Assembly: GCA_001822815.1 (NCBI GenBank)
Contig: MHSR01000013.1
Location: 85,093-149,092 of the forward strand
Source of the DNA: Candidatus Terrybacteria bacterium RIFCSPHIGHO2_01_FULL_43_35
GTDB lineage: Bacteria; Patescibacteriota; Minisyncoccia; Terrybacterales; GWB1-40-14
DNA: 64,000 nucleotides
Direction of reading: 5' to 3'
Below the pieces are notes generated by a model. The model did not search any database. It had not been told where the DNA came from and saw only the letters and a program-made list of their open reading frames with translations. The translations under genes and the position numbers were made by a program. Below, in pieces: positions 2,863 through 61,157 of this stretch (its first letter is position 1; every line of letters starts with the position of its first letter).

Positions 2863-3279
2863 CTAACGCTTCGTGCTCAAAACATTCTTGATTTTTGTTA
2901 TTATTTCTCCAGGAGTAAAGTGAGCCTTAATTAGAAAATCCGTTGCCCCCAAGCTTAAACCTTTTTCAACATCTTCACGCTGCCCCAGGTTTGAAAGTAT
3001 GACCACGGGAATGGTTTGGCTGTCTGGCATTTCTCTTATTTTTTTCAAGACCTCAAAACCGCTCATGCCGGGGAGAATTAGATCAAGTAGAACAATGTCC
3101 GGTTTCTGTTCGGATAACTTGCGTAATCCGCTTTCGCCATCAACTGTCTGCATGACATCAAATTTTTCTTTCTCAAGTTTCTGGGCTATCAATTCGCGTA
3201 AAAAACGGTCATCTTCTATTAGCAAGACTTTAGCTATAGTAGCGTTGTCGTTTGCGTTAGTTGGTTGTTCATTGGCCAT
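2863..3279 (-). CDS. Single-domain response regulator (CheY-like receiver)
   Basis: Receiver motifs LLIEDD...DIVLLDLILPGMSGFEVLKKIR...PVVILSN...GATDFLIK with no output domain. It lies adjacent to a histidine kinase. Confidence 0.8.
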   Translation of the reverse strand: MANEQPTNANDNATIAKVLLIEDDRFLRELIAQKLEKEKFDVMQTVDGESGLRKLSEQKPDIVLLDLILPGMSGFEVLKKIREMPDSQTIPVVILSNLGQREDVEKGLSLGATDFLIKAHFTPGEIITKIKNVLSTKR

Positions 3280-13560: not shown

Positions 13561-13691
13561 CCTCGTTAGAAATTTACGGTAACTTTTCCGGTTAGAAAAG
13601 GTCGCGGCCTTTTCTAACTCCTTCTTGTTTTTTGCAAAGGCCAAAAAGTGTTCGCGGCCAAAATCCTTAATTTCTGTAAATTTCTAACGGG
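13561..13691. repeat. Family-B nested palindromic repeat (CGTTAGAAATTTAC ... GTAAATTTCTAACG outer IR; GTTAGAAAAGG-tcgcgg-CCTTTTCTAAC inner IR)
   Basis: Read from the sequence. It shares the CGTTAGAA/TTCTAACG core with elements at 52146, 53783, 57199 and 59737. Confidence 0.5.
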
Positions 13692-13729
13692 GTCAACGCC
13701 ATTATAAACAGGCAAGAGGCGGTGTCAAG

Positions 13730-17952: not shown

Positions 17953-19065
17953 TTATAGCTTAATCGGCATCAAAAGATAAAGTTGTTTGTTTTCTTCTTT
18001 TTCTGGTCTTATCATTCCTGGTTTGTTTTCTCCGCACAAGTAAAACGTGATGTTCTCGTCTTTAAAACCTTCTAGTCCGTCAATCAGATATTTTGAATTA
18101 AACACCGCGTTGACGCTTTCTCCTTTTGCGCTTTTGGTTTCTACTTTAGTTTCCAATACCCCTTTGTTTGGATCTTCACTTTTGATTTCTATTGTTTTTG
18201 CTTCGGTTTTAAAGGATAAATGGATATCATTTAAACGACTGGTTAATATATTAGCGGCTCGTACCTGATTTAAAAAAACTTCTCTAGCAACAACGAAAGT
18301 GGTTTTTGTTTCTTGGGGAATTATGTGTTTGTAATTAGGATAATTACCGTCTATAAGCCGTGAAACAAGGCTGGTTTTTCCAGCTCTAATTTCGATGTGG
18401 TTCTTATCCAACAAGAAATTTATTTTACTTTCTTGAACCGCTGAAAAAATTCTTATTATTTCTTGGGCGCATTGAAGGGGTATAATATACTGGCCCTCTT
18501 TCTGCTCCTTATTTATATCAATTTTTCTCTCCCCTAATCTAAACGTGTCCGTCGCCACAAGTGTTAAGTTCCCGTTAGAAAAATCTAAAAAAAGGCCGGA
18601 AATTTCGGGCCTAGATTCAGATACGGCAATAAGTGGCAGTAGAGATTGTAGATTAGACAAAAGAGAGCTTTTCTCTATTTCGTTTTGGTTCTCTTCGTTA
18701 ATTTTCGGAAGAAGTGGAAATTCGTCCCCGTCTTCGTGTTTAATCTTAAAGTTAAGTGCACCGTTTTCTATATACAGAAAAAGGGTCTGTTTTGTTGTGT
18801 AAAGATGTATTGGTTCGTTTGCGAATGTACTGGAAACGTCGCTTAAAATTTTTGCTGGAACGGCTACGCTACCCTTTGTTTTGATTTTTGCTGGAACGAT
18901 AGTAAAAGCCCCTAGTTCAAGATTAGTTGATTGAAAAGATAATCCAGAATCCTCCGTTTTTATTAGTATATTTTGTAAAATTGGTAGAGTAGCGTGTTTA
19001 TTCCAAATACGTTCAACAACACGAAGACCCTCCCTAAAATGTTCCGGTAAACACGTAATATCCAT
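17953..19065 (-). CDS. dnaN: DNA polymerase III beta sliding clamp
   Basis: 370 aa with a three-domain clamp-like pattern, located directly downstream of dnaA. Confidence 0.85.
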   Translation of the reverse strand: MDITCLPEHFREGLRVVERIWNKHATLPILQNILIKTEDSGLSFQSTNLELGAFTIVPAKIKTKGSVAVPAKILSDVSSTFANEPIHLYTTKQTLFLYIENGALNFKIKHEDGDEFPLLPKINEENQNEIEKSSLLSNLQSLLPLIAVSESRPEISGLFLDFSNGNLTLVATDTFRLGERKIDINKEQKEGQYIIPLQCAQEIIRIFSAVQESKINFLLDKNHIEIRAGKTSLVSRLIDGNYPNYKHIIPQETKTTFVVAREVFLNQVRAANILTSRLNDIHLSFKTEAKTIEIKSEDPNKGVLETKVETKSAKGESVNAVFNSKYLIDGLEGFKDENITFYLCGENKPGMIRPEKEENKQLYLLMPIKL

Positions 19066-19213
19066 AATTAGTTCTTCTATATAATTCTAACGATTATTAG
19101 TAGCCAGCTTTAAACAGGAAGTGATTAAATAGTTTAAAATATAAAGGAAATTTAAAAAAACATTCTGAATAACTTGCGGATAACCGGTTCTTCACCAGCT
19201 CCTTTAGATTGTA

Positions 19214-20590
19214 TTACTCGTGTAAACGTAATCTTTCTTTTATAGTATTAATTTCATCAAAAATTTGGCCGTTCGTCCTACGTTCCTCCTCGATCTTTTC
19301 GCAGGCATGCATGACCGTAGTGTGGTCACGGCCGCCGATTTTACGTCCGATAAAAGGATAAGAATTCCTAAGTTCTTCTCTTAGGATATACATGGTTACC
19401 TGACGAGGTCGAACAACCTCTTGACGGCGACTCTTCTCTAGAATCTCGCGCTCTTCTATGTCATAAAAATCAGCCACAACCCGGATAACATCACGCCATG
19501 AACACTTCTTTTGAACTTTTATTGTACCGGACAAAAGTTTGTGTATTTCGTTTGGCGATATGTCTACTTGTCCACTAGTAGCTGAAACTCCTTTAACCAT
19601 GGCAACTCTATTTAAGGCTCCTTCAAGCTCGCGTATATTTTTTTGTATTATGTTAGCGATAGCCGTAAGGGTTTGTTCCGACAGCAATAATCCCCTTTCT
19701 ACGGATTTTGTTTTCAAAATAGCCATTCGTGTTTCAAAATCCGGAGGGGTTATATCAGCTATCATCCCCCCTTCGAAACGCGATCTCAGCCTTTCCTCAA
19801 GAGTGGGAATGGCTTTAGGCGGTCTGTCTGAGCTGAAAACCACTTGTTTGTTTTCTGTTGATAAGGCGTTAAAAGTGTGGAAAAGTTCTTCTTGAGTCCG
19901 TTCCTTACCGGCTATGAATTGAATATCATCTATAATCAAAACATCTAATTGCCGATATTTTTCTTTAAATTCGTCTATAGTTCGGTTTTTAATCGAGGAA
20001 ACAAAATCGTTGGTGAATTTCTCACAGCTTATGTACCGTATTTTTAAACCAGCGCGTTTTTTCATGAGCGCATTACCAACAGCTTGTAAAAGATGCGTTT
20101 TCCCTAGCCCCACTCCGCCATAAATAAACAAAGGATTATAAACCATACCAGTTCTTTCAGTCACTGCTTTTGCTGCCGCGTGAGCCAACTCGTTGAATTG
20201 TCCGATAACAAAACCATCAAAAGTATAGCGCGGGTTCAAATTAGTTTCGCGGTCAACTTGAGAATGTTGCAGGGGCAGAGAAAGAATGCTGGGAGCAGAG
20301 GCTGGATTTTTGGCAGCATGCGATACCCCGTTTTCTCTGTGTTGAGTTTTGCCTACGACGAATTGAATATCTCTTATCTCATTATCTTTTGTGCGCAAAG
20401 ATTTTAATATAGGCTTTCTATATTTGGTTTCTAGCCATTCTTTGGCAAAGGCATTTGGTACGCTCACCACCGCCAAGCCATCTTTTTTGTCGTAAAGAAC
20501 CGTTTTTTGGAACCAGGTAATAAAATTAGCCCTTGAAAGAGATAATTCTAATTCTCCTAGCACAAGCTGCCATAGATCATCTTTGGTCAT
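19214..20590 (-). CDS. dnaA: Chromosomal replication initiator DnaA
   Basis: Walker A GGVGLGKTHLLQA, box VII, and a C-terminal DNA-binding helix. Confidence 0.9.
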   Translation of the reverse strand: MTKDDLWQLVLGELELSLSRANFITWFQKTVLYDKKDGLAVVSVPNAFAKEWLETKYRKPILKSLRTKDNEIRDIQFVVGKTQHRENGVSHAAKNPASAPSILSLPLQHSQVDRETNLNPRYTFDGFVIGQFNELAHAAAKAVTERTGMVYNPLFIYGGVGLGKTHLLQAVGNALMKKRAGLKIRYISCEKFTNDFVSSIKNRTIDEFKEKYRQLDVLIIDDIQFIAGKERTQEELFHTFNALSTENKQVVFSSDRPPKAIPTLEERLRSRFEGGMIADITPPDFETRMAILKTKSVERGLLLSEQTLTAIANIIQKNIRELEGALNRVAMVKGVSATSGQVDISPNEIHKLLSGTIKVQKKCSWRDVIRVVADFYDIEEREILEKSRRQEVVRPRQVTMYILREELRNSYPFIGRKIGGRDHTTVMHACEKIEEERRTNGQIFDEINTIKERLRLHE

Positions 20591-20866
20591 ACAAATAAAA
20601 TAATACTAATTATTGATTCTTGTTTGCAGAAACCATTATAGATCATCCGCAGAAAACCACGACAACCCCTCAAGAGCCTGTTTTTGTGCACACTCTGTGG
20701 ACAATATATGGAAAACCAAACCAGCGCTGTTATCTATAAATAAAGGTTATATCAAAAGCAAGAAAAAAGCCAGTTTTATAACAAGAAGTAAAATTAGTCC
20801 GGTTTGACCAACTCAAAACACGTGGTAGTATAAAAAAGTTTTATTGTTAACAAAGGAACTTAAAAT
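20591..20866. other. Putative oriC region between divergent dnaA and rpmH
   Basis: AT-rich. DnaA-box-like 9-mers TGTGGACAA (about 20694) and TTATCTATA (about 20730) are present. A further TGCGGATAA lies in the dnaN-dnaA spacer (about 19166). Confidence 0.4.
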
Positions 20867-21001
20867 ATGCTGACACGCTTTCCCAAAAAATCCAAAAAAA
20901 GAAAAAAACACGGTTTTCGTAAAAGAATGCGAACTCCCGGCGGCCGCAAAACCATATCCCGAAGAAGAGGCAAAAAAAGAGCTAAACTCACAGTTAAATA
21001 A
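20867..21001 (+). CDS. rpmH: 50S ribosomal protein L34
   Basis: MLTRFPKKSKKRKKHGFRKRMRTPGGRKTISRRRGKKRAKLTVK, 44 aa. Not in the ORF track because it is under 60 aa. Canonical rpmH-rnpA-yidD-yidC-jag order. Confidence 0.85.
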   Translation: MLTRFPKKSKKRKKHGFRKRMRTPGGRKTISRRRGKKRAKLTVK

Positions 21002-21024
21002 AAGCACGGCTTAGCAAATTTAGT

Positions 21025-21372
21025 ATGTTAGCTAAAAGATACCGCATTCCCAAAATAGATCTGAAGAAAGTCTTTGTAAGCAAAAATAAAGTTTTCTATA
21101 AAAACATAAACATTAATTTTGCAGCAAATAAACTTTCGCATCCCCGCTTTGCCGTATATGTTAATATGAACAAATCTATCAAAGGAGCTGTCGGGCGTAA
21201 TAGAGCAAGGCGAATTTTGTTTGACGAAATAGCCAAAAACCAGAAAATATTTGTTAGCGGGTTTGATGTTTTGGTTAAAGCGCGTATGGGAACTGCCAGA
21301 GAGCAAAAAGAAACCAGAACTAATCTAGATCACGCTCTAAAACTAATTACAAACAAAAACCCAAATGTTTAA
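21025..21372 (+). CDS. rnpA: RNase P protein component
   Basis: 115 aa basic protein following rpmH; [10 protein letters not shown] ... GRNRARRIL motif. Confidence 0.8.
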
Positions 21373-21616
21373 TTTTTTTGAGACCTTTTTTAAAACCACA
21401 ATTATTTCCGTGATAGTTTGGTATAGAGAATTCTTGGGCAATAGTAAAATTATCGGTGTTATCGCGCCATTCCCGTGCAGATTTTATCCAACATGCTCTC
21501 AATACGCGCAGGAAGCCATAACAAAAAAAGGTTTATTAAAAGGAGGTTTCATGTCCTTTAAACGTATTCTGCGTTGTCACCCTCTTGCTCGCGGGGGCTA
21601 TGATCCGGTAATTTAG
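21365..21616 (+). CDS. yidD: Membrane protein insertion efficiency factor YidD
   Basis: [12 protein letters not shown]...G ... RILRCHP motif. Confidence 0.8.
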
Positions 21617-21625
21617 ATTTTCAAA

Positions 21626-22366
21626 ATGGATCCAATATATTTATTCCACGAAATATTATATAAGCCCATATTTAATGCGTTAATAGGCTTATATGTTTTA
21701 TCTCCGATTAGGGATTTTGGCTTGGCCATAGTTATTTTAACCATATTGACCAGGTTGTTTTTCTATCCCATGTCCAAAAAGGCGGCTTATTCGCAAAAGT
21801 TAATGGCGCAGATACAGCCGCAGCTCAAAGAGATACAAGAAAGACATAAAGATAATAAGGAACGCCAAAGTAAGGCCATGATGGAGTTTTATCAGACAAA
21901 AAAATTCAATCCCTTTTCCGGTTGTGTGCCCATACTAATACAATTGCCGGTTTTATTCGCGCTTTTTGCGGTTTTTAAAAACGGTCTTGACCCCCAATCA
22001 TTTAAAGATCTTTATTCATTTATACCTAATCCAGGAAGCATAAATGATACAGCGTTTGGAATCTTAAAGCTAACAAGCCCCACGCCTTTCATTCTTGCTA
22101 TTGCGGCCGGATTCGCGCAGTATGTGCAGTCGGCTATGATGCTGGTTAAAACGCAAAATAAAACCGCAAAAAGCGGCGATAGCAAAATGGACATGAATCA
22201 GATTATTTCGATACAAGCCAAGTACATATTTCCCATCTTTACTGTATTTATCGCACTAAAATTTCCAGCTGGTCTGGGATTATACCTATTGGCCACAACT
22301 CTAGTCTCAATAGTACAGCAATATTTTATCAACAAAACGCTTGCCAAAGAACAAATCCCATCCTAA
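21626..22366 (+). CDS. yidC: Membrane insertase YidC/Oxa1 (short form)
   Basis: 246 aa, five TM helices. The LYPM-like and QQ...Q regions (YPMSKKAAYSQKLMAQIQPQLKEIQ) are present. Confidence 0.8.
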   Translation: MDPIYLFHEILYKPIFNALIGLYVLSPIRDFGLAIVILTILTRLFFYPMSKKAAYSQKLMAQIQPQLKEIQERHKDNKERQSKAMMEFYQTKKFNPFSGCVPILIQLPVLFALFAVFKNGLDPQSFKDLYSFIPNPGSINDTAFGILKLTSPTPFILAIAAGFAQYVQSAMMLVKTQNKTAKSGDSKMDMNQIISIQAKYIFPIFTVFIALKFPAGLGLYLLATTLVSIVQQYFINKTLAKEQIPS

Positions 22367-26991: not shown

Positions 26992-27831
26992 TTAAGGCTG
27001 ACGGCAGAATGGCAAAACTAAGCCTTGAGCGCCGCCTTCCCATACGCAGCCAACGGCCTCACAAGCCGCCTTGCCTTGATTAGTGCAGGCGGTGCAACTG
27101 GATATAGAACAAGTGGGTGTAATTGCTCCGCCACCGCCGGAAGAAGTTCCTTGAGGAGCGCAACAATACACATCATGGAAGGCCTCTACGTATCCAGTTG
27201 TAGAATTGGTGGTATAGCTTCGTTCTATAGCGCATTCGGTGCGGATGCCACCGCATGTATTGGCGTTACATACGGAATTCGCCTCATCCACACTTACATT
27301 ATCCATAAGCTTACCGCATTCTGAACGCTGACTGGGACATTTGGCGCCATAAGCATTATCTGCTGTAGGCAGGGTTATTGTTGCAAAATTCACCAAGCTA
27401 CCATTTATGGCAGCTAAAATGATGTAGGAACTCAAAAGCAGGACCAGTCCAAGAATGGCGTTGGTTATCCTTTCCTTGGCTTCGTTTTGAGAAGTTGAAT
27501 TGCCCGCACCTGCGGCATATTGGATGCCTGCGACAACCATCATTACCAAAGCAAGGAAACCGGCAGAGCCTACGCCCAGCTTGAATACATAGACGATTAG
27601 ATCCGGAAGGCTGCCGGTGTTTGTGCCAATTGTTGGATTAAAAGAACCAATAATAGGCAAGCCAAGTCCTTTTTCAAACGGGATACCTTGGTTCGGGTCG
27701 TTTATGGTGCATATCGTGGCGGCATTGCTTGTTTGAGCAAAGTAAAAAACCGAAAAGAAAACAATTAAACCTAACATTAAAAGCGCGAATTGCGATCTAA
27801 TCCTCACATTTTTCAAGATAAATTTAACCAT
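26992..27831 (-). CDS. VirB2/TrbC-like pilin candidate with a Cys-rich C-terminal domain
   Basis: Signal peptide, then two hydrophobic helices separated by a short loop (FLALVMMVVAGIQYAAGAGN ... ILGLVLLLSSYIILAAI). The C-terminal roughly 120 aa carries more than 14 Cys. It is the last gene of the T4SS-like operon. Confidence 0.4.
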   Translation of the reverse strand: MVKFILKNVRIRSQFALLMLGLIVFFSVFYFAQTSNAATICTINDPNQGIPFEKGLGLPIIGSFNPTIGTNTGSLPDLIVYVFKLGVGSAGFLALVMMVVAGIQYAAGAGNSTSQNEAKERITNAILGLVLLLSSYIILAAINGSLVNFATITLPTADNAYGAKCPSQRSECGKLMDNVSVDEANSVCNANTCGGIRTECAIERSYTTNSTTGYVEAFHDVYCCAPQGTSSGGGGAITPTCSISSCTACTNQGKAACEAVGCVWEGGAQGLVLPFCRQP

Positions 27832-27854
27832 ATAAGTTTTATTGCAAGTTTGTA

Positions 27855-28409
27855 TTAAAAACCAAGCGCGTGGCCGATATTGGTCAAAGCATCGCCTATA
27901 AAACCGGCTACGCCGCCGACAGTCCCTACAACAAGCAGAATGATAATGATAAATGGAACAAACAGCATCATTATACCGAATACTAACCCTCCAATTATCA
28001 AAAACGGCACCAAGAAGCCTAAAGCCAGAGGATTACTTAAGAGGCGCTTAACCACGTGTCTTAAAACGAAGCCTTGCGGAGTGAATTGTTTTACGCCGGA
28101 AGTTGCGGCGTCTATTACTGCGCCAATACCCTGTTGACGCAGACTCTGTATGCGCGAGTGCCGCAGACCAGAACTTCTTTGATCTTCGTTGTCTTGAGGT
28201 GCCGTAGCCTTGGACGCAACGCGTTTGGCCACCTGCCTTAAGGCAAATCCTTGCGGAGTGAATTTTTTCACGCCCCCCGTTGCCGTATCTATAGCCTTAT
28301 TAATACCTTGCTGGCGCACGGCTTGAAGGCGCGCGCGGCGCAATTGTGCCTGGCGTTGCATTTCCACGTCTTGAGTTCCATCCATATTTAAAGCTGCTTC
28401 TTCGGCCAT
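27855..28409 (-). CDS. Membrane protein with two roughly 40-aa tandem repeats and a C-terminal double TM
   Basis: RRARLQAVRQQGINKAIDTATGGVKKFTPQGFALRQVAKR is repeated as RHSRIQSLRQQGIGAVIDAATSGVKQFTPQGFVLRHVVKR. Two TM helices follow. Confidence 0.5.
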   Translation of the reverse strand: MAEEAALNMDGTQDVEMQRQAQLRRARLQAVRQQGINKAIDTATGGVKKFTPQGFALRQVAKRVASKATAPQDNEDQRSSGLRHSRIQSLRQQGIGAVIDAATSGVKQFTPQGFVLRHVVKRLLSNPLALGFLVPFLIIGGLVFGIMMLFVPFIIIILLVVGTVGGVAGFIGDALTNIGHALGF

Positions 28410-28494
28410 ATGTACTAATTATAATATTTAAAACCTTTATAAGATATAGGACTTACACGTTTGCTTTTTTGAACGGATTAAGATAGCGATGTTT

Positions 28495-30306
28495 TTAACT
28501 GTTTGGGCTACGGCTTTGTTTTAACGCCACCAACTGCTCCGGATCCGATGTTATTATCTTATCTTCGGTATATGAAGCCACTACTTTTATGGCCACATGT
28601 TTCAAGCCGGCGAAAAACAGCCCCTCCCCCACCGCGGCTTCCAATAGAAGATATTTTTCTTCATCCGTCAGGTTAAAGGCTTGTTTTACCGCCTCAATTG
28701 TCGCGGGAGATTGTTTGAACAATATTTGCAGAGAGGAATTGGTAATTAAAGGCTGGCCGTATTTTGAATTCAGGAAATCGTTGACGTCCTGCGTTATTGT
28801 GGACAGGCCCAAGTAATATTTGCGCGCTCGCTTGGCTATGGAATAAAGGAAAGATCCGCCGTCTTCATGTTGCATTACCCACCAGGCCTCATCCACAACC
28901 AGCATGCGTTTCTTTAGAGATCCGCGCACCACGTTCCATATATGGTGCAAAATCATGTACATGGCTATAGGCCTTAAAGAATCCTCAAGATCGCGGATGT
29001 TGAAGACCACAAGATTATTGTTCAAATCGAGATTTGAAGGTTGATCAACGAACCCGGCGCTCGTGCCTTCAGTGAATTTTTTTAGCCGCGCGGCTAATTC
29101 GTCTCCGCCAACCAAACTTTCCAATACGGTAATGAAATCCTTTAAAACCGGTGGGTTAATGTTTTTAAAATCGCTCTCCGGAGTTATGTTGCGTGAGGCG
29201 TATGTTTCTTCCACTGCCGTGTCCATCAAGGCTTCTTGAGTTTCGTTTATGGTCCCAAGCATTATTCTTAGCAAGCCCGTAAGCTCAAGAAGATGCGAGC
29301 GGAAAATATCGGCTTGGGATTCGCCCTCAACAACCCGCGGCAAATCAAAGGGATTAATTTTATTCTGGCTGGTCAAAGAAATTTTAAAATAACTTCCGCC
29401 CACGGCCTCGGCTAAGCGTTCATACTCGTTTTCGGGATCAATAATAATTACGTCAACGCCCACCATAAGCGAGCGCAATATTTCTAGTTTCATGGCATAG
29501 GATTTTCCTCCGCCAGATTGGCCAAATATCACTGTATTGGCATTGGGCAGACTGAAACGATCAAAAATAACCAGAGAATTGTTATGCCGGTTAACGCCAT
29601 ACATTATCCCCTTATCCGTCGTTAAATCAAAAGAAACAAAAGGGAAAATTGTCGCCAGCGATTCAGAATCCAGGTTGTTTGTAATATTCAACCAATCCTC
29701 GTTGTAAGGGAATGCCGATTTTAAGGCCTCGCTCTGTTGAAATACGGCTGGCTTGGCATAAACCAATTTTCCTTCCAGGAGAGACCTTAAGACCGTTTCC
29801 TGTTTATCAAGCTCTTCGGGTGTTTTGCTCCACACTGTTATATAAAGCGAGAACTGAAAAAGATGACTTGAGGCTTGTTGTAATTTGTCCCTTAATTCTT
29901 CAACGTCTTCATAAGCCGTTTCCAGTATTGGATCACGCACGAGACCTTTTTCCTCTTCTATGGCTATCTGTGATTCTACCTCAGCAACTTTTTTGCGCAG
30001 TTTTTTAAGTATCATTCCGGTATCAATAGGATGTATGTGCATAGAAATATCCATGACCGCATCCATGTTTATTATCGGCGCAAACCAGTTAGTGGATAGA
30101 TACCGGGGATAGGTGAATATAAAAAACGTCCGGCAGTAGCGCTCCCCTACCTTAATAAAATTCTGACCAAATTCCAGAGCCGCTGGCGCCACCAGATCTT
30201 TTAGGGTGGTAATGCCGCGGGCAAAAACCTGACCGGCCTCGGCGAGAATGCGCTCGGTTTCTTGAGAAGACGGCGTTTTTTGTTTTTTAGAAGATAAAAT
30301 AGACAT
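28495..30306 (-). CDS. virB4: VirB4/TrbE-family T4SS ATPase, C-terminal roughly 600-aa fragment (ATPase domain)
   Basis: Walker A VIFGQSGGGKSY and Walker B VVDEAWWVM. The N-terminus (LKDLVAPAALEFGQNFIKVGERYCRTF...) continues the VirB4 fold after the N-domain encoded separately at 30701-31363. Confidence 0.85.
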   Translation of the reverse strand: MSILSSKKQKTPSSQETERILAEAGQVFARGITTLKDLVAPAALEFGQNFIKVGERYCRTFFIFTYPRYLSTNWFAPIINMDAVMDISMHIHPIDTGMILKKLRKKVAEVESQIAIEEEKGLVRDPILETAYEDVEELRDKLQQASSHLFQFSLYITVWSKTPEELDKQETVLRSLLEGKLVYAKPAVFQQSEALKSAFPYNEDWLNITNNLDSESLATIFPFVSFDLTTDKGIMYGVNRHNNSLVIFDRFSLPNANTVIFGQSGGGKSYAMKLEILRSLMVGVDVIIIDPENEYERLAEAVGGSYFKISLTSQNKINPFDLPRVVEGESQADIFRSHLLELTGLLRIMLGTINETQEALMDTAVEETYASRNITPESDFKNINPPVLKDFITVLESLVGGDELAARLKKFTEGTSAGFVDQPSNLDLNNNLVVFNIRDLEDSLRPIAMYMILHHIWNVVRGSLKKRMLVVDEAWWVMQHEDGGSFLYSIAKRARKYYLGLSTITQDVNDFLNSKYGQPLITNSSLQILFKQSPATIEAVKQAFNLTDEEKYLLLEAAVGEGLFFAGLKHVAIKVVASYTEDKIITSDPEQLVALKQSRSPNS

Positions 30307-30700
30307 TTAGCTAAAATTTCTAATTACTAATTTCTAATTGACCTAAGCAACTCTCAAGATACAAGATACAATAACCAGACAAATCACAATAATCAAAAGT
30401 TCAAATTCCAAAGCTCATCCTTCGACTCTACTCAGGATGACCCTGAACGGAAACGAATGGGTCAAATGACAATTCATGGATTCGACTTCGCTCACCATGA
30501 CCCTGAGTAGAGTCGAACGGGTCAATGCTTAAAATTCAAAGGCTTAAAACCGTTTTTGTGCCTTAGTCATTTAGGCTTGAATTGAAATTTAGATTTTGGC
30601 ATTTGGGTATTGTCTGTATCTTGGGTCTTGGTTATTCGCAACATTTTTGTCATTAGACATAGGGATTTGATTAGAAATTAAGAATTAGAAATTAGACATT
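30307..30700. mobile_element. Family-A MITE-like palindromic element (394 bp) inserted between the two halves of virB4
   Basis: Terminal inverted repeats AAATTTCTAATTACTAATTTCTAATTGACCTAAG (30314-30347) and its reverse complement at 30664-30700. Internal sub-palindromes are present (TCGACTCTACTCAGG / CCTGAGTAGAGTCGA). Related copies lie at 37451, 45858 and 56991. AT-rich, no ORF. Confidence 0.6.
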
Positions 30701-31363
30701 TTAAGCTTCTGCATTCAATGCGGCCATATCGGGTACTCCGCCAGTCTCTTCCTTCTCTGGATTATACAGGCCCCAAATTAGTTCTATTAGTTCTTCGGTG
30801 GTAAGCATGGTTGACCTAGAGCCCAAACCGCGCAAGCCTTGTTCAACAAATTCTACCCGTTGCACAAGTTGATTGCGAAACTCGTGGAATTTTGCGGCAT
30901 CTATAAAAAACTCTTTTCTGGACGCGGGCAGTAAGGTGGATTTAATACTGCCCAAGGGGCCGGTGTCTTTGGCCGCCGCGGCTTCAAGCGCAAAGGGCAC
31001 TATAACATAATAGGTTTTAGACATTATGGATACGGTTTCCACAAAAGAGCGTATGAATTCAATATATTCTTGGGTTTGGATCTTTAAGAGTTCATTTTCT
31101 TGGGCGGCCTCTAACTGCGAAAGAGTTGATAAATAGCCGGATATATTTAGGCGGCGCGAATGGACAAAAATCTGTAGATTAAAGTCCAGTGAGTTTAGAA
31201 AATTCTGGAAACCGTATATTATAGCCTCCTGTTCGTCTTGAGACTTCAGGCCAAAATTGGTTGCCGAAACCATTAAAATGGCTCGCAAAGAGCCGTCTTT
31301 TAACACAATGACATCGTCGCGTATTTGTTCAAATTGTAGGAAAGATTGAGTGGAAGAAGGCAT
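30701..31363 (-). CDS. virB4: VirB4 N-terminal domain encoded as a separate ORF
   Basis: FEQIRDDVIVLKDGSLRAILMVSATNFGLKSQDEQEAIIYGFQNFLNSLDFNLQIFVHSRR aligns position by position with the N-domain of A. tumefaciens VirB4 (...DHIVLLEDGSIMSIARIDGVAFELEEIEMRN...). 220 + 603 aa approximates one full-length VirB4. Confidence 0.7.
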   Translation of the reverse strand: MPSSTQSFLQFEQIRDDVIVLKDGSLRAILMVSATNFGLKSQDEQEAIIYGFQNFLNSLDFNLQIFVHSRRLNISGYLSTLSQLEAAQENELLKIQTQEYIEFIRSFVETVSIMSKTYYVIVPFALEAAAAKDTGPLGSIKSTLLPASRKEFFIDAAKFHEFRNQLVQRVEFVEQGLRGLGSRSTMLTTEELIELIWGLYNPEKEETGGVPDMAALNAEA

Positions 31364-31395
31364 ATGCCGTCGTTGCCCGCGAGCTCGCTCGCGGT

Positions 31396-31453
31396 TGCAA
31401 CGACGTGCATCCTAAGGAGCGAAGCGACGAGGGACTACCTTAATAAAAAATTC
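31396..31453 (-). repeat. 58-bp leader repeat, copy 1 (upstream of the VirB4-N gene)
   Basis: TGCAACGACGTGCATCCTAAGGAGCGAAGCGACGAGGGACTACCTTAATAAAAAATTC, versus copy 2 at 31926-31983 with 6 mismatches. An adjacent 38-bp hairpin (31368-31405) reaches to 5 nt from the start codon. Confidence 0.6.
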
Positions 31454-31479
31454 AAGTTTTTAGTTTTAATTTTAAAATT

Positions 31480-31899
31480 TTAGGATTTACGTACTTGAGT
31501 ATCTACATCTAGCGCCGTGGCCAACTCCTTTATTTTCTGCACGGTGAGTCCTTCGCCGCCAGCCCGCCTAGATGCGTCAAAAGGAGACTTTTTGTGTTCA
31601 CGTATCTTTATTCGCGGATTTTCTTTGTGCCATATATAGTTTTTTGGATTTACGGCAAATTTCAGCGCGGCAAATAAAAAAGTTCCGAAAGACCGCTCGT
31701 TGATTTTCACGAAAGCGAAGCAAACGCCAGCAACGACGCAAAAGAAAGCCAGCATTTTCCCAACAGGATTTTTTAACAAAACAAATAACAAAGCGGCAGA
31801 AATACCGGCCGTGCCCAAATCAATAGCCTGCCATAATGTCAGACCAGCCACAACCTTATCCTGCACGTCAATAAATTTTGGAACTTTAGCTTGCGCCAT
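31480..31899 (-). CDS. VirB3/PrgI-like small two-TM protein
   Basis: 139 aa with an N-terminal KVPKFIDVQDKVVAGLTLWQAI motif, then two TM helices. Sits directly upstream of virB4 (canonical VirB3-VirB4 order). Confidence 0.5.
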   Translation of the reverse strand: MAQAKVPKFIDVQDKVVAGLTLWQAIDLGTAGISAALLFVLLKNPVGKMLAFFCVVAGVCFAFVKINERSFGTFLFAALKFAVNPKNYIWHKENPRIKIREHKKSPFDASRRAGGEGLTVQKIKELATALDVDTQVRKS

Positions 31900-31925
31900 G
31901 GTTGCTCCCGAGCAACGCGAGGGAA

Positions 31926-51973: not shown

Positions 51974-53032
51974 ATGATTAACCGCGGCCCCATAAGCGAA
52001 TTAAAAAAACAGTTTCTTGAATATATAGAAGTAGAAAAAGGCCGTTCAGCCAAAACCGTAGAGAATTATGACCATTATTTGGAGCGGTTTTTCACTTGGC
52101 TTGTTGAAAATGTGAAGCCCCGTACCGAACGAAGTTCTGGTACTGGGGTTTCACGTGAAACCCCGTTAGAGGTCTCGCCCGCGCTTGCGCGCCCGCGAGA
52201 GTCTGCGGGGCGGGCCGCCTCTAACGAGGTGGAACCCCCTGTAGAAAAGCCTACTCTTTCAGATCTAACAGAAGAAAAGGTTAGAGCGTTTCGTGTGTGG
52301 CTCAACCGGAAATCGTTATCCAAACAGACACAGAATTATCACGTAATCGCACTGCGCATGTTCCTTAAGTTTCTTGCCCATAAAGGCATTGATGCTTTGT
52401 CCGCGGAACGTTTGGAGCTTGCTAAAACAGGCGCAAGGGAGGTTGATTTTCTTGAAGGTGAGGATTTGGAACGCATGCTTAGTGCGCCAAAAGGCAATGA
52501 TTTGCGCGCGTTGCGCGACCGAGCGATATTAGAAACCCTTTTCTCCACCGGCATGCGTGTTTCAGAGCTATGCGCCTTGGACATAGATCACATCAATATT
52601 GAAAAAGGAGAATTTGCTGTACGCGGGAAGGGCGATAAAATTAGGCCGGTTTTTCTATCGTATCACAGCAGAGAAACAATAAGGGATTACATGAACGCCC
52701 GCGCCGTAATAGTGGAAAAAGCCTTGTTTGTAAGGGTACCTCGTGGTAAGAATTCATTAAATAATGGTAATAATTTTACGCGCTTGACACCAAGATCGGT
52801 TCAGCGGTTGGTTCAACACTACGCGCAAAAAGCCGGCATAGTTGGTAAACACGTAAGCCCGCACACATTAAGACACTCTTTTGCCACCGATCTTTTGAGA
52901 AACGGCGCCGATTTGCGTTCGGTACAAGAAATGTTGGGACATTCTTCCATAACGACTACGCAAATATATACGCACGTCACAAACCCACAGCTAAAAAAAG
53001 TGCACGAAAAGTTCCACAAAGATCCTGAATAG
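51974..53032 (+). CDS. xerC: Tyrosine recombinase XerC/XerD family, with a roughly 40-aa repeat-derived insertion in the N-terminal core-binding domain
   Basis: C-terminal catalytic RHSFATDLLRNGADLRSVQEMLGHSSITTTQIYTHV. The N-domain is interrupted by a GC-rich segment encoding ...GTGVSRETPLEVSPALARPRESAGRAASNEVEPP... Confidence 0.85.
   Translation: MINRGPISELKKQFLEYIEVEKGRSAKTVENYDHYLERFFTWLVENVKPRTERSSGTGVSRETPLEVSPALARPRESAGRAASNEVEPPVEKPTLSDLTEEKVRAFRVWLNRKSLSKQTQNYHVIALRMFLKFLAHKGIDALSAERLELAKTGAREVDFLEGEDLERMLSAPKGNDLRALRDRAILETLFSTGMRVSELCALDIDHINIEKGEFAVRGKGDKIRPVFLSYHSRETIRDYMNARAVIVEKALFVRVPRGKNSLNNGNNFTRLTPRSVQRLVQHYAQKAGIVGKHVSPHTLRHSFATDLLRNGADLRSVQEMLGHSSITTTQIYTHVTNPQLKKVHEKFHKDPE
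52146..52230. repeat. Family-B GC-rich palindromic element inserted in-frame within xerC
   Basis: GGTTTCACGTGAAACCCCGTTAGAGG-(GC-rich core)-CCTCTAACGAGG. The first 45 bp are near-identical to 53783-53827. GC content is sharply higher than in flanking coding DNA. Confidence 0.55.
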
Positions 53033-53782: not shown

Positions 53783-53930
53783 GGTTTCACGTGAAACCCC
53801 GTTAGAAATCTCGCCCGCACTTGCCCCGTTAGAGGCCCTCTTTTGGGAGGCAGTCACCCTTGACGATTTGCCTCTAACGGGGCTTGCGCGCCAGCGAGGA
53901 CCTTTGGGGCAGGCTGTTTCTAACGGAGTG
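53783..53930. repeat. Family-B nested palindromic element
   Basis: GGTTTCACGTGAAACCCCGTTAGAAATCTCGCCCGC ... CCCCGTTAGAGG-36 bp-CCTCTAACGGGG ... TTTCTAACGGAG. The 104-aa ORF called across it (53736-54050) is probably spurious. Confidence 0.5.
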
Positions 53931-57121: not shown

Positions 57122-57192
57122 CGGAGATTAGTATACCGGTAGTACGCACGCTTCGGGTGCGTGAAGACCGGGTTCGATTCCCGGATCTCCGA
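57122..57192 (+). tRNA. tRNA-Pro (anticodon CGG), no encoded CCA
   Basis: Hand fold: acceptor CGGAGAT/ATCTCCG (C1:G72 as in tRNA-Pro), anticodon stem CACGC/GCGTG with loop TTCGGGT, T-arm CCGGGTTCGATTCCCGG. Confidence 0.85.
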
Positions 57193-57336
57193 CTAAAAAT
57201 TTCTAACGAGGCAAGGGTGCGCTTGTCCTGAGCATATTGAAGGATAAAGACCGAGTTCTTCCGCCCAGCCCCAGTTTGAAAAAATAACAAACTGGGGCTG
57301 GGCGGGATTGCTGTTTGTTTCCAATCGTTCCGACGA

Positions 57337-59178: not shown

Positions 59179-59745
59179 ATGAGCTATGCTTTAATGGGTA
59201 AGAAAGGACAGGTCAAAACGTCATATATGACAAAGAAAATAAGTAAAAAGGAACAGGATTTTATGCGCTCGTATGACGCTCATGCGGACGCGTTATTTCG
59301 GCACTGCTATTTTCGCGTATATGACCGTGAGCGAGCTAAAGAGCTAGTGCAGGAAACATTTATGCGTGCCTGGGAGTATGTGGTCAAAGGGCATAAAGTA
59401 CAAAATCTTCGCGCTTTCCTCTATCGAGTCGCAATAAACCTTATTATTGACGAATCGCGAAAGAATAAACCAGTCTCTTTGGATGAACTAGCTCAAAGTG
59501 GATTTGATGTAGCAAGCGAAGAGTATGAAATGCTGCACACGAAAATAGATGCCTCTAGCGCCGCAGCATTGTTTAAAAACTTGGACGACAAACATCGCGA
59601 GGTTATAATTTTACGTTATTTAGACGGGTTTAAGCCCAAAGAAATAGCCCGGATGCTTAATGAATCTGAAAACGTGGTTTCGGTGCGCCTGCACAGGGCC
59701 ATTAAACAAATTTCAGGCACGTTTACCGCACATGAATCCCGTTAG
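59179..59745 (+). CDS. ECF-type RNA polymerase sigma-70 factor
   Basis: Region 2 (ALFRHCYFRVYDRERAKELVQETFMRAWEY) and region 4 HTH (ILRYLDGFKPKEIARMLNESENVVSVRLHRAIKQI). Confidence 0.8.
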   Translation: MSYALMGKKGQVKTSYMTKKISKKEQDFMRSYDAHADALFRHCYFRVYDRERAKELVQETFMRAWEYVVKGHKVQNLRAFLYRVAINLIIDESRKNKPVSLDELAQSGFDVASEEYEMLHTKIDASSAAALFKNLDDKHREVIILRYLDGFKPKEIARMLNESENVVSVRLHRAIKQISGTFTAHESR

Positions 59746-59940
59746 AAGCCGCGATCGCAAAGGATTAGCAATAAACCCCGTTAGAAAGTTATTTTTGAAA
59801 CTTTTATAGGGAATATTATAATTGATGTGTTTGTGATGCGAGCTTTCTAACGGGGTAAAAATATCTATGTCATATATATAGTATCCATACAAATAATTTT
59901 GCAGATTGAGATCATTGATCGCGATCTGCTTCTAACGGGA
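59737..59940. repeat. Family-B nested palindromic element spanning exactly from the sigma-factor stop codon to the next start codon
   Basis: Outer IR TCCCGTTAGAAGC (59737-59749, containing the TAG stop) and GCTTCTAACGGGA (59928-59940, abutting the ATG). Inner IR CCCCGTTAGAAAG (59777-59789) and CTTTCTAACGGGG (59843-59855). Also GCGATCGC...GATCGCGATC sub-palindromes. Confidence 0.55.
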
Positions 59941-61157
59941 TGAATAACAATCTCCAAAAATTAATAAACGAAGCTAAGCTTTGGGGCTTAACCGTCGAAG
60001 AGCGAAACGGCATTCGCCGAAACCTACTTGCTTTTATGGAGAGCAATCCGCAAGGCGTTCACGGTTTTGGCGCCGAAGCCAGGGTTTCAAACTGGCACGT
60101 CTTATTTACTGCCAAGCCCGTAGCGCTGTTTTTGAGTATTATTTTAATACTGACTGGTAGTACTAGCTTGTCTTTTGCCGCCGAAAACTCTTTACCAGGA
60201 GAAATACTTTATCCAGTCAAGGTAAACATAATCGAAGAAGTACGTTCTGCCCTGGCCTCATCGACTGAAACAAAGGCCAAGTGGGAAAGTGAGCGTATGG
60301 CCGTAAGGCTTGAAGAAGCTGAAGCATTGGCTAACAATGGCCAATTAACCCCCAAGCTCAGAGCAGAGATAGAATATAATTTTGAAAAACACGCTCAGCG
60401 GGTTGATGAGCATGTGGCCAAGCTTGAGGATGAAGGTAACGTTCGGGCCGTAGCCCAGGTTTCATCAAATCTTGAAGTGTCGCTGGAAGTGCACCAAGCT
60501 ATTTTAGAGAACCTTGCCGACCAGGAAAGCGCGGCAGAAGAAATTGATAACGGCGTCATAGGGCAGAGCGAAGAGCTTCTTATCAAAATAGAAGAGAAGA
60601 AAGATTTTGCTTCCTTAGATAGACAGGACAGCGAAGAAAAGGTTTACGAACAACCAACGGACGCCGCTGAAGCTACCGCCCAGGCTGGCTTGCAAGAAGC
60701 CGAGAAGCGAATAGTTCAAGTGCAGGATTTTATATACAATGATAATAAAAGTTCAAAATCCAGCGCAGATTTTTCTTTGATGGAACGCTCGCGAGCCCGT
60801 CTCCTTTCAGCCAAACAAATTTTAGATGACGGTAAGGTTAAGCTGGAGGCCAAAGATTACGCCGAAGCCTTCGTTTTGTTCCAAGCCGCAGACAGGGCAG
60901 CTAGACGAGCCCAATTAATAATGGAGACAAAAAACAATCTTGATATAGAAATTGAGTTGGATGACGATCCAACGGTTTTAGATGAGAATGAATCAAACGC
61001 AAAGACTGAAACCGATAACAACAGTGAAGTAAATGCCGTTGTCGGAGATCCGCCATCTTCGGAAGAGTCCTCAGGGAGCATTTCTAATCAAGACGCCACG
61101 GCGAATAATGAAGATCAACCAGTCGAAGAAGCGTCGCCGGTAATCAGTCTTCCGTAA
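59940..61157 (+). CDS. Single-pass membrane protein downstream of the ECF sigma gene; putative anti-sigma/DUF5667-like partner
   Basis: About 55-aa cytoplasmic N-domain, a TM (VALFLSIILILTG), then a helical extracytoplasmic domain and an acidic tail. Assignment is by genomic context. Confidence 0.4.
   Translation: MNNNLQKLINEAKLWGLTVEERNGIRRNLLAFMESNPQGVHGFGAEARVSNWHVLFTAKPVALFLSIILILTGSTSLSFAAENSLPGEILYPVKVNIIEEVRSALASSTETKAKWESERMAVRLEEAEALANNGQLTPKLRAEIEYNFEKHAQRVDEHVAKLEDEGNVRAVAQVSSNLEVSLEVHQAILENLADQESAAEEIDNGVIGQSEELLIKIEEKKDFASLDRQDSEEKVYEQPTDAAEATAQAGLQEAEKRIVQVQDFIYNDNKSSKSSADFSLMERSRARLLSAKQILDDGKVKLEAKDYAEAFVLFQAADRAARRAQLIMETKNNLDIEIELDDDPTVLDENESNAKTETDNNSEVNAVVGDPPSSEESSGSISNQDATANNEDQPVEEASPVISLP

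Follow-up and report, generated by a model that had tools for sequence, protein, structure and literature searches.

Nested MITE-like copies as the probable origin of the spacer between an ECF sigma-factor gene and its partner in a Terrybacteria genome

Short mobile repeats of bacteria and the present family

Rickettsia palindromic elements (RPEs) are short, palindromic, non-coding repeats found in frame in unrelated housekeeping genes and translated together with the protein, and bacterial MITEs such as Correia/NEMIS, RUP, ERIC and Nezha are small elements that insert at gene boundaries and have effects on neighbouring genes (PMC10969869). Both groups resemble in part a family of short repeats present in the 64,000-nt stretch of Candidatus Terrybacteria DNA analysed here (the window), two copies of which probably make up the spacer between an ECF sigma-factor gene and its partner. 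As in RPEs, copies lying within open reading frames are in frame and translated, and 28/29 of these have a length that is a multiple of 3 (against 56% of all copies), a likeness that concerns the family and not the sigma-spacer copy. Compared with RPEs by description only, the present elements differ in their hosts (Patescibacteria, Planctomycetota and Omnitrophota), in the much shorter simple copies (50-80 nt, against about 150 bp), in the conservation of nothing but the 13-nt ends where RPEs have a conserved peptide, in having clear target duplications, and in a further preference for sites precisely at start codons. With bacterial MITEs they share the small size, the lack of an ORF, terminal inverted repeats, target-site duplication, dispersed copies, hairpin potential and insertion at gene boundaries; in contrast to those, the family here has no known parent insertion sequence, its interiors are largely unrelated, its identical ends extend over several phyla, and within 64 kb one copy was seen nested in another at least twice (in the sigma spacer and near 53 kb).

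The ends themselves recall a different group. The left end of piggyBac has been published as CCCTAGAAAGATAG, with TTAA as the target and TAAA and TCAA as rare variants, and IS1380 serves as its prokaryotic outgroup. In the IS1380 family, duplications are 4-5 bp long and the ends begin with CC. The present family has tips of the form YCCC...GGGR, a 13-nt repeat starting with CCC, (Y)CCCGTTAGAAAG, and a 4-bp T-N-N-A duplication, a likeness to piggyBac that is a match between short sequences and could be coincidence. Unlike in piggyBac, the two central target bases are free rather than restricted to TA, and the target is not limited to TTAA. Searches of the window and of about 1 Mb of related loci yielded no piggyBac- or IS1380-like transposase with such ends. 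The MIRUs are small repeats found between operon genes whose stop and start codons overlap or abut, as at the sigma spacer; unlike the elements here, they are direct repeats in tandem, lack terminal inverted repeats and hairpins, and are known only from mycobacteria. No earlier description of the family was found in the literature searched, which covered the motif itself and MITEs or RPEs in CPR/Patescibacteria, Planctomycetes and Omnitrophota.

Anatomy and reconstruction of the sigma/partner spacer

The ECF sigma-factor gene (59179-59745, + strand; Pfam Sigma70_r2, Sigma70_r4_2 and Sigma70_ECF) is followed by a gene for a DUF5667 membrane protein, a putative anti-sigma factor (59940-61157, + strand; Pfam DUF5667). 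The interval that begins at the stop codon of the sigma gene and ends at the partner ATG consists of two nested, perfect 14-nt inverted repeats with the common core CCCGTTAGAA. The outer one is formed by ATCCCGTTAGAAGC (59736-59749) and GCTTCTAACGGGAT (59928-59941) and the inner one by ACCCCGTTAGAAAG (59775-59788) and CTTTCTAACGGGGT (59843-59856), each complementary at 14/14 positions. The sequence-only reading had described this layout correctly: the outer repeat includes the sigma TAG stop (59743-59745, inside the left arm), the spacer is filled from stop to start, with the right outer repeat ending at the partner ATG (59940-59942), and a second inverted repeat is nested inside together with the sub-palindromes GCGATCGC (59751-59758) and GATCGCGATC (59917-59926). 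It had overlooked the ATGAAT flanks of the outer arms, the TAAA flanks of the inner arms, and the recurrence of the nested architecture elsewhere in the window.

The sequence ATGAAT is found on both sides of the outer arms (59732-59737 and 59940-59945). The outer target-site duplication is the TGAA within it, as a direct repeat on the + strand. Its left copy (59733-59736, or ATGAAT at 59732-59737 when counted as 6 nt) includes the codon at which the partner gene originally started and stands in the register of the family-wide duplication, and its right copy (59941-59944) gives the TG of the present ATG and the bases with which codon 2 begins. Between these copies lies the outer element, 204 nt long including the inner one, with ORFs of at most 59 aa that look spurious. 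Its left terminal inverted repeat TCCCGTTAGAAGC (59737-59749, + strand), recognised from the inverted-repeat anatomy and the family profile, supplies the final codons TCC CGT and the TAG stop of the sigma gene, while the right one, GCTTCTAACGGGA (59928-59940, + strand), recognised from the anatomy, has as its final base the A of the partner ATG (59940). The inner element comprises 80 nt with an AT-rich interior (59776-59855), is bounded by the terminal repeats CCCCGTTAGAAAG (59776-59788) and CTTTCTAACGGGG (59843-59855), and is flanked by the direct repeat TAAA (59772-59775 and 59856-59859, + strand). The terminal repeats of both copies are perfect at 13/13 positions, or 14/14 counting the flank base.

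Removal in silico of 208 nt brings back an 8-nt stop/start overlap, ATGAATAA, in the junction ...GCA CAT GAA TAA / ATG AAT AAC.... The sigma ORF then ends in ...TAHE* (186 aa), where at present it ends in ...TAHESR* (188 aa) at the new TAG, two codons later, that comes from the left terminal repeat; the partner N-terminus MNNNLQKLINEA is the same with or without the insertion and aligns with MNDFLTKKLIQNA of a relative. For a chance boundary match, the sequence-only reading had looked to relatives with a short unrelated spacer and identical coding termini; the two closest relatives checked have no spacer at all. Their genes overlap by 14 nt (L001) and 8 nt (L004), at 59-64% identity, and their junction matches the reconstructed empty site; that of L004, ATGAATGA (GCG TAT GAA TGA / ATG AAT GAT), is homologous to the reconstructed overlap. 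A third relative (L006) has a 155-nt spacer of unrelated sequence. In the ancestral locus, the sigma stop and the partner start overlapped by 8 nt.

The spacer is most probably, at a probability of about 0.85, two nested copies of a non-autonomous miniature element of the cut-and-paste type (MITE-like). The elements are below about 500 bp and have no transposase coding, they possess terminal inverted repeats and target duplications, and copies are dispersed at non-homologous sites. The proposed history begins with a 120-nt element of sub-family c entering A-TGAA-T and duplicating TGAA, after which an 80-nt AT-rich element would have entered TAAA inside the outer one. As read from the sequence, the sigma frame runs into the left repeat, gains Ser-Arg and stops at the TAG within the core. 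At the other end, the terminal A of the right repeat and the duplicated TG rebuild the partner ATG, so that the partner protein stays as it was. Where an overlap normally couples the two genes, there is now a 194-nt spacer. The mobilising enzyme would be a DDE-type transposase making staggered cuts of about 4 bp, possibly an IS1380/piggyBac-like one.

The sequence-only reading had also offered a recent insertion that created both termini. Insertion is borne out by the flanking duplications, the dispersed family and the overlapping genes of relatives. As for the termini, the sigma stop does come from the element, and the partner ATG was rebuilt from the terminal A and the duplicated TG. A recent date is not supported: every population contig (at least seven, assembled independently) carries the identical element, which is fixed, and no empty-site allele is found in the metagenome collection. 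Exact scans of that collection with the empty junction (TTTACCGCACATGAATAACAATCTCC) and the outer-only junction (GGATTAGCAATAAAAATATCTATGTC) gave 0 matches each, and no near-identical empty allele was found among the members of the sigma, partner and xerC-like protein clusters, which differ only in their start-codon calls. Since the source population shows no variation in the element, mobility at the sigma locus is inferred and not observed. The family also breaks assemblies, and three contigs end or diverge inside the sigma-spacer copy.

A dispersed family with conserved ends

A scan of a genome collection with a two-arm pattern, which required two exact arms and did not include the flank bases, detected the same architecture in 120 genomes or more, the majority from Patescibacteria, Planctomycetota and Omnitrophota. 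Among 80 of the matches listed, 42 are from Patescibacteria, 19 from Planctomycetota and 7 from Omnitrophota; only 6 viral contigs carry the architecture, and they give no lead on a vector. The family has a 13-nt terminal repeat, YCCCGTTAGARRN (signature Y-CCCGTTAGA-R-R-N). Its interior, about 25-180 nt long, is unconstrained, and its target duplication of about 4 bp is usually T-N-N-A, with T at position -4 in 73% of copies, A at -1 in 76% and Y at 0 in 98%. Perfect 4/4 flanking duplications occur in 67/130 copies, where 7.8 +/- 2.5 are expected from re-paired flanks (maximum 16), none of the 67 being TTAA; about half of the 130 copies have no perfect duplication. The central flank positions match as a direct repeat in 66-67% of copies and as an inverted repeat in 13-21%, while the identity of the two arms within an element is kept up to position 12 (94% at 11 and 85% at 12) and reaches the chance level of 23% at position 13. 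An alternative register, with a 2-bp duplication and a 15-nt repeat, may apply, and copies whose flank bases are atypical do not discriminate between it and the 4-bp one.

Once the inner element is peeled away, the two ends of the outer element of the sigma spacer align with sub-family c copies that adjoin unrelated genes, the internal ends of this sub-family being GCCGCGRTCGCA...GCGAYCTGC. Other genomes have these arms, and indeed this sub-family, next to rsmH, ftsL-like, lexA-like, trigger-factor-like and dnaA-like genes. Three near-identical copies are carried by a Jorgensenbacteria genome (L032). Most copies have interiors unrelated to one another. This is seldom so in MITEs that descend from one parent element, and it counts against the MITE model.

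Within the window, the 10-nt core at up to one mismatch occurs 17 times, against 3.9 +/- 1.9 in shuffled sequences, and 0/100 shuffles reach 17. Four loci with at least six elements are present, three of these loci being distinct from the sigma spacer. The first lies between ruvC and tyrS (13561-13692), with TCAG and TCAA flanks, a short degenerate inner palindrome and a fold z of -5.8. The second is a sub-family a copy with degenerate arms (52161-52229) inside the ORF of an xerC-like tyrosine recombinase (51974-53032), which is open throughout; the Pfam SAM-like domain of this protein is split between residues 47 and 95. The third is a second nested pair whose outer copy, by alignment with the one at 52 kb, belongs to sub-family a (53797-53928; fold z = -4.6). 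It equals the 52-kb copy plus a clean insertion of 63 nt that has arms of its own and a duplicated CTTG, the inner copy occupying 53824-53882 between CTTG flanks (53820-53823 and 53883-53886), and it is best read from this alignment as an independent nested insertion.

The family has two preferred positions relative to genes. A start codon is adjoined by 29/124 copies (23%), against 0.5% of random positions, an excess that can be explained by a target preference for A-TGAA together with purifying selection in compact genomes. The other position is within genes, in frame: 23% of the 124 copies are placed in this way, in secA, dnaE and uvrA among others; the sigma-spacer copy, unlike these, is intergenic. 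RsmH, SecA, DnaE, GatB and UvrA were confirmed as host proteins, with Pfam domains interrupted at the element, which is translated in them as PVR...SNG or PLE...LT.

No transposase with these ends was found among the 50 window proteins searched with Pfam. The inward ORFs next to unpaired exact arms are not transposases, only housekeeping genes lie between arms that have matching flanks and are spaced 250-5000 bp apart, and a phmmer search of 3342 ORF pieces from about 1 Mb of related loci, with an approximate piggyBac sequence as query, found no piggyBac-like ORF. A more far-reaching form of the MITE-like reading, which we regard as tentative and rather unlikely, would make the elements non-autonomous partners of an unrecognised prokaryotic transposon lineage with piggyBac/IS1380-like ends. 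Such a lineage would have been transferred horizontally among ultra-small or host-associated bacteria (Patescibacteria and Omnitrophota) and Planctomycetota, and the design of its ends would let very compact genomes tolerate insertions. Each arm lacks stop codons in two of its three reading frames, and the terminal A would rebuild an ATG at A-TGAA sites. Read from the retained upstream ATG, the right end would give an in-frame fusion, a stop at the TAA of the arm, 4 nt ahead of the ATG, or a stop at an overlapping ATGA. Were excision footprint-free, as in piggyBac, insertions in essential genes would also be reversible.

Other explanations and consequences for the organisms

The intergenic RNA, for which the sequence-only reading had suggested a large cruciform or stem-loop, is predicted to fold strongly: the region 59725-59955 folds with -71.1 kcal/mol (z = -6.1), the outer stem taking in 59940-59941, and the inner element alone folds with -29.4 kcal/mol (z = -5.4). 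The element may have a secondary effect on expression, or a regulatory role through hairpin coupling or an internal promoter. Expression of the partner may need readthrough of this strongly folding RNA, its melting, or the promoter-like site of the inner element (59795-59822, + strand), a TTGAAA-16 nt-TATAAT match to the sigma-70 type at 11/12 consensus positions that is oriented toward the partner gene and would place a transcription start near 59829. Melting could be achieved by ribosomes on the sigma ORF or on a 25-codon ORF that begins at the retained left ATG (59732).

Among the alternatives, the one that fares best supplements rather than replaces the insertion model, and holds that DNA of selfish origin now controls the sigma/partner ratio. 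The outer stem would hide the A and U of the partner AUG until the stems are melted, and the start freed, by ribosomes that finish the sigma ORF or translate the short ORF; instead of this, or along with it, the promoter-like site would drive transcription of the partner independently of the sigma gene. The strength and extent of the fold, the sigma stop inside the 5' arm, the promoter-like match, the invariance of the element in the population contigs and the share of family members adjoining start codons are all consistent with such a role. Nevertheless we hold it doubtful, as a strong fold is generic to every copy, also to intergenic copies that lie between convergent genes, promoter-like sites are no commoner in the region than in shuffles, the start-codon excess can be explained as above, and, judging from the sequence, no Shine-Dalgarno-like motif stands at a functional distance from the partner ATG.

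That the palindrome arose for this gene pair, as a dedicated stem-loop, cruciform or attenuator, had been the other proposal of the sequence-only reading and is very improbable despite the exact fit between stop and start and the strong fold. The genes of L001 and L004 overlap without a spacer and that of L006 is unrelated, target duplications flank the element, and no match at E <= 1 was found in 59650-60000 with Rfam 15, which at gathering score finds only tRNAs in the window. A conserved sigma-specific regulator is rejected because look-alike copies flank unrelated genes. An intrinsic terminator or attenuator, a GC-rich hairpin with a U-run, was likewise looked for, and no terminator-like site was found on the + strand within 59737-59940; the sequence 3' of the outer stem is ATGAATAAC.

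Still less probable is a REP/REPIN-type repeat mobilised by a RAYT (an IS200/IS605-like Y1 transposase), or a BIME-like mosaic. These repeats too are short, dispersed and palindromic and occur as inverted pairs forming hairpins, but to our knowledge REPs and REPINs make no target duplications, which are perfect over 4 nt in 52% of copies here; moreover, the individual arms are not palindromes, and no Y1 transposase is found in the window. The host lineages are thought to depend on DNA uptake, and motifs like DNA-uptake sequences that pair as terminators, or sites bound by a host protein, would need no mobility and would account for an over-represented core that is often paired in inverted orientation; this is the least probable reading, rejected for uptake sequences because of the duplications, which are variable, and the in-frame copies in essential genes with lengths biased to multiples of 3, and opposed also by the clean nested insertions, the identical motif in three phyla and the pairing of nearly all exact arms, few being solitary. 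Sites of the integron attC type have the consensus order R'' (RYYYAAC) ... R' (GTTRRRY) and lie in arrays between cassettes; the order here, GTTAGAA ... TTCTAAC, is the reverse on both strands, and there is no cassette array.

Under the MITE-like reading, what looks like a designed regulatory palindrome would be a by-product of transposition, in which mobile DNA supplied a stop codon and rebuilt a start codon. The two genes, whose junction normally relies on a stop/start overlap, are now 194 nt apart, which should change the ratio of sigma factor to partner. In uncultured lineages, 17-26 residues are added within domains of SecA, DnaE, UvrA, GatB and RsmH, so that protein-family alignments and structure predictions are affected, and the family probably misleads gene callers as well, as with a public xerC-like protein lacking its N-terminus. 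The family is spread across ultra-small bacteria, and its copies are often placed at start codons or in frame within essential genes. Their identical 13-nt ends in three phyla would imply a shared transposase, and may serve as a marker of DNA exchange among these organisms.

The nested element at the sigma/partner junction

The spacer between the ECF-type sigma factor ORF (59179-59745) and the downstream ORF of its partner, a DUF5667 protein and putative anti-sigma (59940-61157), is filled by two inverted repeats, one inside the other. The sequence-only reading had described these nested repeats and tied both gene boundaries to them, and both points hold exactly: the outer arms, ATCCCGTTAGAAGC (59736-59749) and GCTTCTAACGGGAT (59928-59941), and the inner arms, ACCCCGTTAGAAAG (59775-59788) and CTTTCTAACGGGGT (59843-59856), are each 14/14 complementary, the sigma TAG stop (59743-59745) falls within the left outer arm, and the partner ATG takes its first base from the end of the right outer arm. 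Folding of the spacer RNA, proposed there as a check, gives a strong structure (-71.1 kcal/mol versus -44.8 +/- 4.3 for shuffles; z = -6.1). Three further points were absent from that reading: the outer arms are immediately bordered on either side by ATGAAT, the inner arms are bordered by TAAA, and the core common to all four arms, CCCGTTAGAA, is enriched throughout the window, with 17 matches at one mismatch or fewer versus 3.9 expected and none of 100 shuffles reaching 17.

The source genome is a Candidatus Terrybacteria (Patescibacteria) from the Rifle aquifer, and its next-closest sigma homolog is 64% identical. Comparison with relatives, another check proposed, shows overlapping sigma and DUF5667 genes in the two nearest relatives examined, with overlaps of 14 nt at locus L001 and 8 nt at L004; in a third (L006), the genes are separated by an unrelated spacer of 155 nt. 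Excision in silico of 59738-59945 (208 nt, the element plus one duplication copy) yields an 8-nt gene overlap, in which the sigma gene ends ...ACC GCA CAT GAA TAA (...TAHE*) and the partner gene starts ATG AAT AAC, with the partner protein unaltered. The L004 junction, ...GCG TAT GAA TGA (...LAYE*) with ATG AAT GAT and a partner N-terminus of MNDFLTKKLIQNA versus MNNNLQKLINEA in the window, matches the excised one, and the reconstructed empty site is thus homologous to a real one. Read from these junctions, the insertion added Ser-Arg and an arm-derived new stop to the sigma C-terminus, and rebuilt the partner ATG from the terminal A of the arm and the duplicated TG.

The proposal that a recent insertion created both termini therefore stands as regards insertion, given the duplications, the overlaps in relatives and the reconstructed junction, but its recency is unproven and the element is fixed. 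Every full-length population contig carries the element, all identical save for a single substitution downstream of it in one contig, and exact scans of the metagenome collection gave no match to an empty site or to an outer-only intermediate. The perfect arms and duplications suggest, short of proof, that the insertion is not ancient. Three independent assemblies from the source population (L011, L012 and L013) end or diverge within the element, ending at window positions 59832, 59786 and 59886, respectively, the last being divergent from 59872 on; the inverted repeats of the element break short-read assemblies.

The insertion would remove the overlap through which the two genes are normally coupled. 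In the outer stem, the partner AUG has its A and U base-paired, and no Shine-Dalgarno-like sequence is found at a useful distance from the partner ATG. The left ATG that was kept (59732) starts a 25-codon ORF running across both left arms to 59809, and the stems would be melted by ribosomes on this ORF or by those that terminate at the sigma stop, within the 5' arm. A promoter-like TTGAAA-16 nt-TATAAT, with 11/12 positions matching, is also present in the inner element, directed toward the partner gene; any of these could sustain partner expression.

A dispersed family with 13-nt terminal repeats

When one genome per species was scanned with the pattern CCCGTTAGAR-N30-60-YTCTAACGGG, at least 120 loci matched. 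Among the 80 matches listed, 42 are in Patescibacteria (many classes), 19 in Planctomycetota, 7 in Omnitrophota and 5 in other named phyla, with 7 unclassified. Certain phyla dominate genome collections, and none of these is represented among the 80. Outside the search pattern, T at -4 (73%), A or G at -1 and Y at 0 (98%) are conserved. Arm identity within an element is 94% at position 11 and 85% at position 12, and falls to chance (23%) at position 13, while the central flank positions agree as direct repeats in 66-67% and as inverted repeats in 13-21%, which defines a sharply bounded terminal repeat of 13 nt, Y-CCCGTTAGA-R-R-N, with an unconstrained interior. A perfect 4/4 flanking duplication is present in 67/130 copies versus 7.8 +/- 2.5 (max 16) after re-pairing of the flanks, and the duplicated tetramers are mainly T-N-N-A (TTTA 13, TTGA 8, TTCA 8, TGAA 7, TAAA 7), of which TGAA and TAAA at the sigma spacer are typical. 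The duplication may be of 4 bp beside a 13-nt repeat or of 2 bp beside a 15-nt repeat.

A small number of interior sub-families reappear in lineages far apart, and the two ends of the window's outer element (120 nt after removal of the inner element and of one TAAA) align with copies of sub-family c in L017, L047, L097 and L132. Six copies from different genomes (L047, L064, L068, L074, L097 and L113), unlike the rest of the family, have A(A/C)CYTGT in common on the left and a flank starting ATG on the right, without duplication.

Some copies adjoin start codons and others lie in frame within genes. Of 124 copies, 56% have a length divisible by 3; 29 lie within ORFs that stay open for 150 nt or more to each side, 28 of them being multiples of 3, and 29 adjoin the start codon of an ORF with 60 or more codons, versus 0.5% of random positions. 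The in-ORF copies are translated as PVR...SNG (22 of the 28 listed) or PLE...LT (6 of 28), corresponding to the two frames in which the arms have no stop, and by Pfam their host genes include RsmH, SecA, DnaE, GatB and UvrA, with the added residues in or beside conserved domains. By eye, L129 has copies at 4799-4856 and about 7700-7737, at ribosomal-protein gene junctions (L22/S3 ... L5) of a conserved ribosomal operon.

Look-alikes of the window copy adjoin unrelated genes, one in frame in rsmH and others upstream of ftsL-like, lexA-like, trigger-factor-like and dnaA-like genes, so the element is not a conserved sigma regulator. The suggested cruciform or stem-loop coupling or attenuating the sigma/anti-sigma pair is not supported as the origin of the spacer, since the same type of element is dispersed beside unrelated genes elsewhere. 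The sigma-spacer copy is an ordinary member of the start-codon class: A|TGAA| is a good T-N-N-A target and the commonest type of gene start in these AT-rich genomes, and insertions at gene starts are among the few tolerated in compact genomes.

Other copies in the window

The nested + + - - arm arrangement of the sigma spacer recurs at 53797-53928 and, in degenerate form, at 13561-13692; a single arm pair lies at 52161-52229. Alignment shows the 53797-53928 copy, between a NUDIX gene and a tRNA gene, to be the 52161-52229 type plus a 63-nt insert, which has its own ends CCCGTTAGAGG...CCTCTAACGGG bordered by duplicated CTTG(C), the inserted element being 53824-53882. This locus is a second, independent instance of insertion of element into element. 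The 52161-52229 copy, with degenerate arms, lies inside an xerC-like tyrosine recombinase ORF (51974-53032) whose frame is open throughout, and in Pfam the N-terminal SAM-like domain is broken exactly at the copy, between residues 47 and 95. The public NCBI protein (306 aa) begins downstream of that domain, the annotation having probably been misled by the insert.

Both sub-family a copies in the window are preceded by an identical perfect 16-nt palindrome, GGTTTCACGTGAAACC (52147-52162 and 53783-53798), overlapping the left arm, and their flanks form a 7-nt direct repeat GTGAAAC / GTGRRAC outside the usual register. A lone right arm, TTTCTAACGAGG (57199-57210), with no visible left arm, lies 7 nt past the 3' end of a tRNA gene (57122-57192). 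An exact core (18571-18580) lies within the dnaN ORF (17953-19065, minus strand), where no partner arm can be recognised and a small GGCCGGAAATTTCGGGCC hairpin comes after the core; the dnaA-dnaN-rnpA-yidC region (17953-22366) suggests a replication origin close by. At about 26992-31900 there is a type IV secretion-like cluster (T4SS pilin, TraG-like ATPase, PrgI-family protein), neighboured by several large ORFs without Pfam match.

Mode of insertion and relation to known elements

Terminal inverted repeats, variable target duplications, dispersed non-homologous copies, clean nesting and an empty-site-like junction in homologs are together the hallmark of cut-and-paste insertion at a target cut in staggered fashion, and from these sequence features the family is read as a non-autonomous MITE-like element. 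Among other readings, the REP/REPIN one is contradicted by the target duplications, the attC one by inverted core order, and an intrinsic terminator by the lack of a terminator-like site on the + strand of the sigma-spacer element; no Rfam family fits that element.

In behaviour, the closest systems are Rickettsia palindromic elements, whose insertions in housekeeping genes keep the reading frame (PMC10969869), and also bacterial MITEs generally. The present family differs from them in host range and size; in addition, its conservation is confined to 13 terminal bases, its T-N-N-A duplication is clear and it has a start-codon class. Its ends resemble those of piggyBac, a lead from short end sequences and not a classification: piggyBac has a 13-bp terminal repeat with conserved CCC tips (left end CCCTAGAAAGATAG) and a 4-bp TTAA target duplication, with TAAA and TCAA as rare variants, and IS1380 serves as its prokaryotic outgroup. 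No transposase was found by protein domain search of the 64-kb window, nor between or beside arms across related loci totalling about 1 Mb, and a sequence search of the related-loci ORFs found no piggyBac-like ORF.

A full-text literature search, of incomplete coverage, returned no earlier description of the motif or of MITEs in these phyla. A Jorgensenbacteria contig (L032) carries three near-identical 78-nt copies (2943-3020, 3027-3104 and 6122-6199), the first two adjacent, a likeness that suggests recent activity, and its genome is a promising source for the transposase of the family. The palindrome first noticed at the sigma spacer is explained and ordinary in kind, and the family behind it, apparently undescribed, is moderately interesting.
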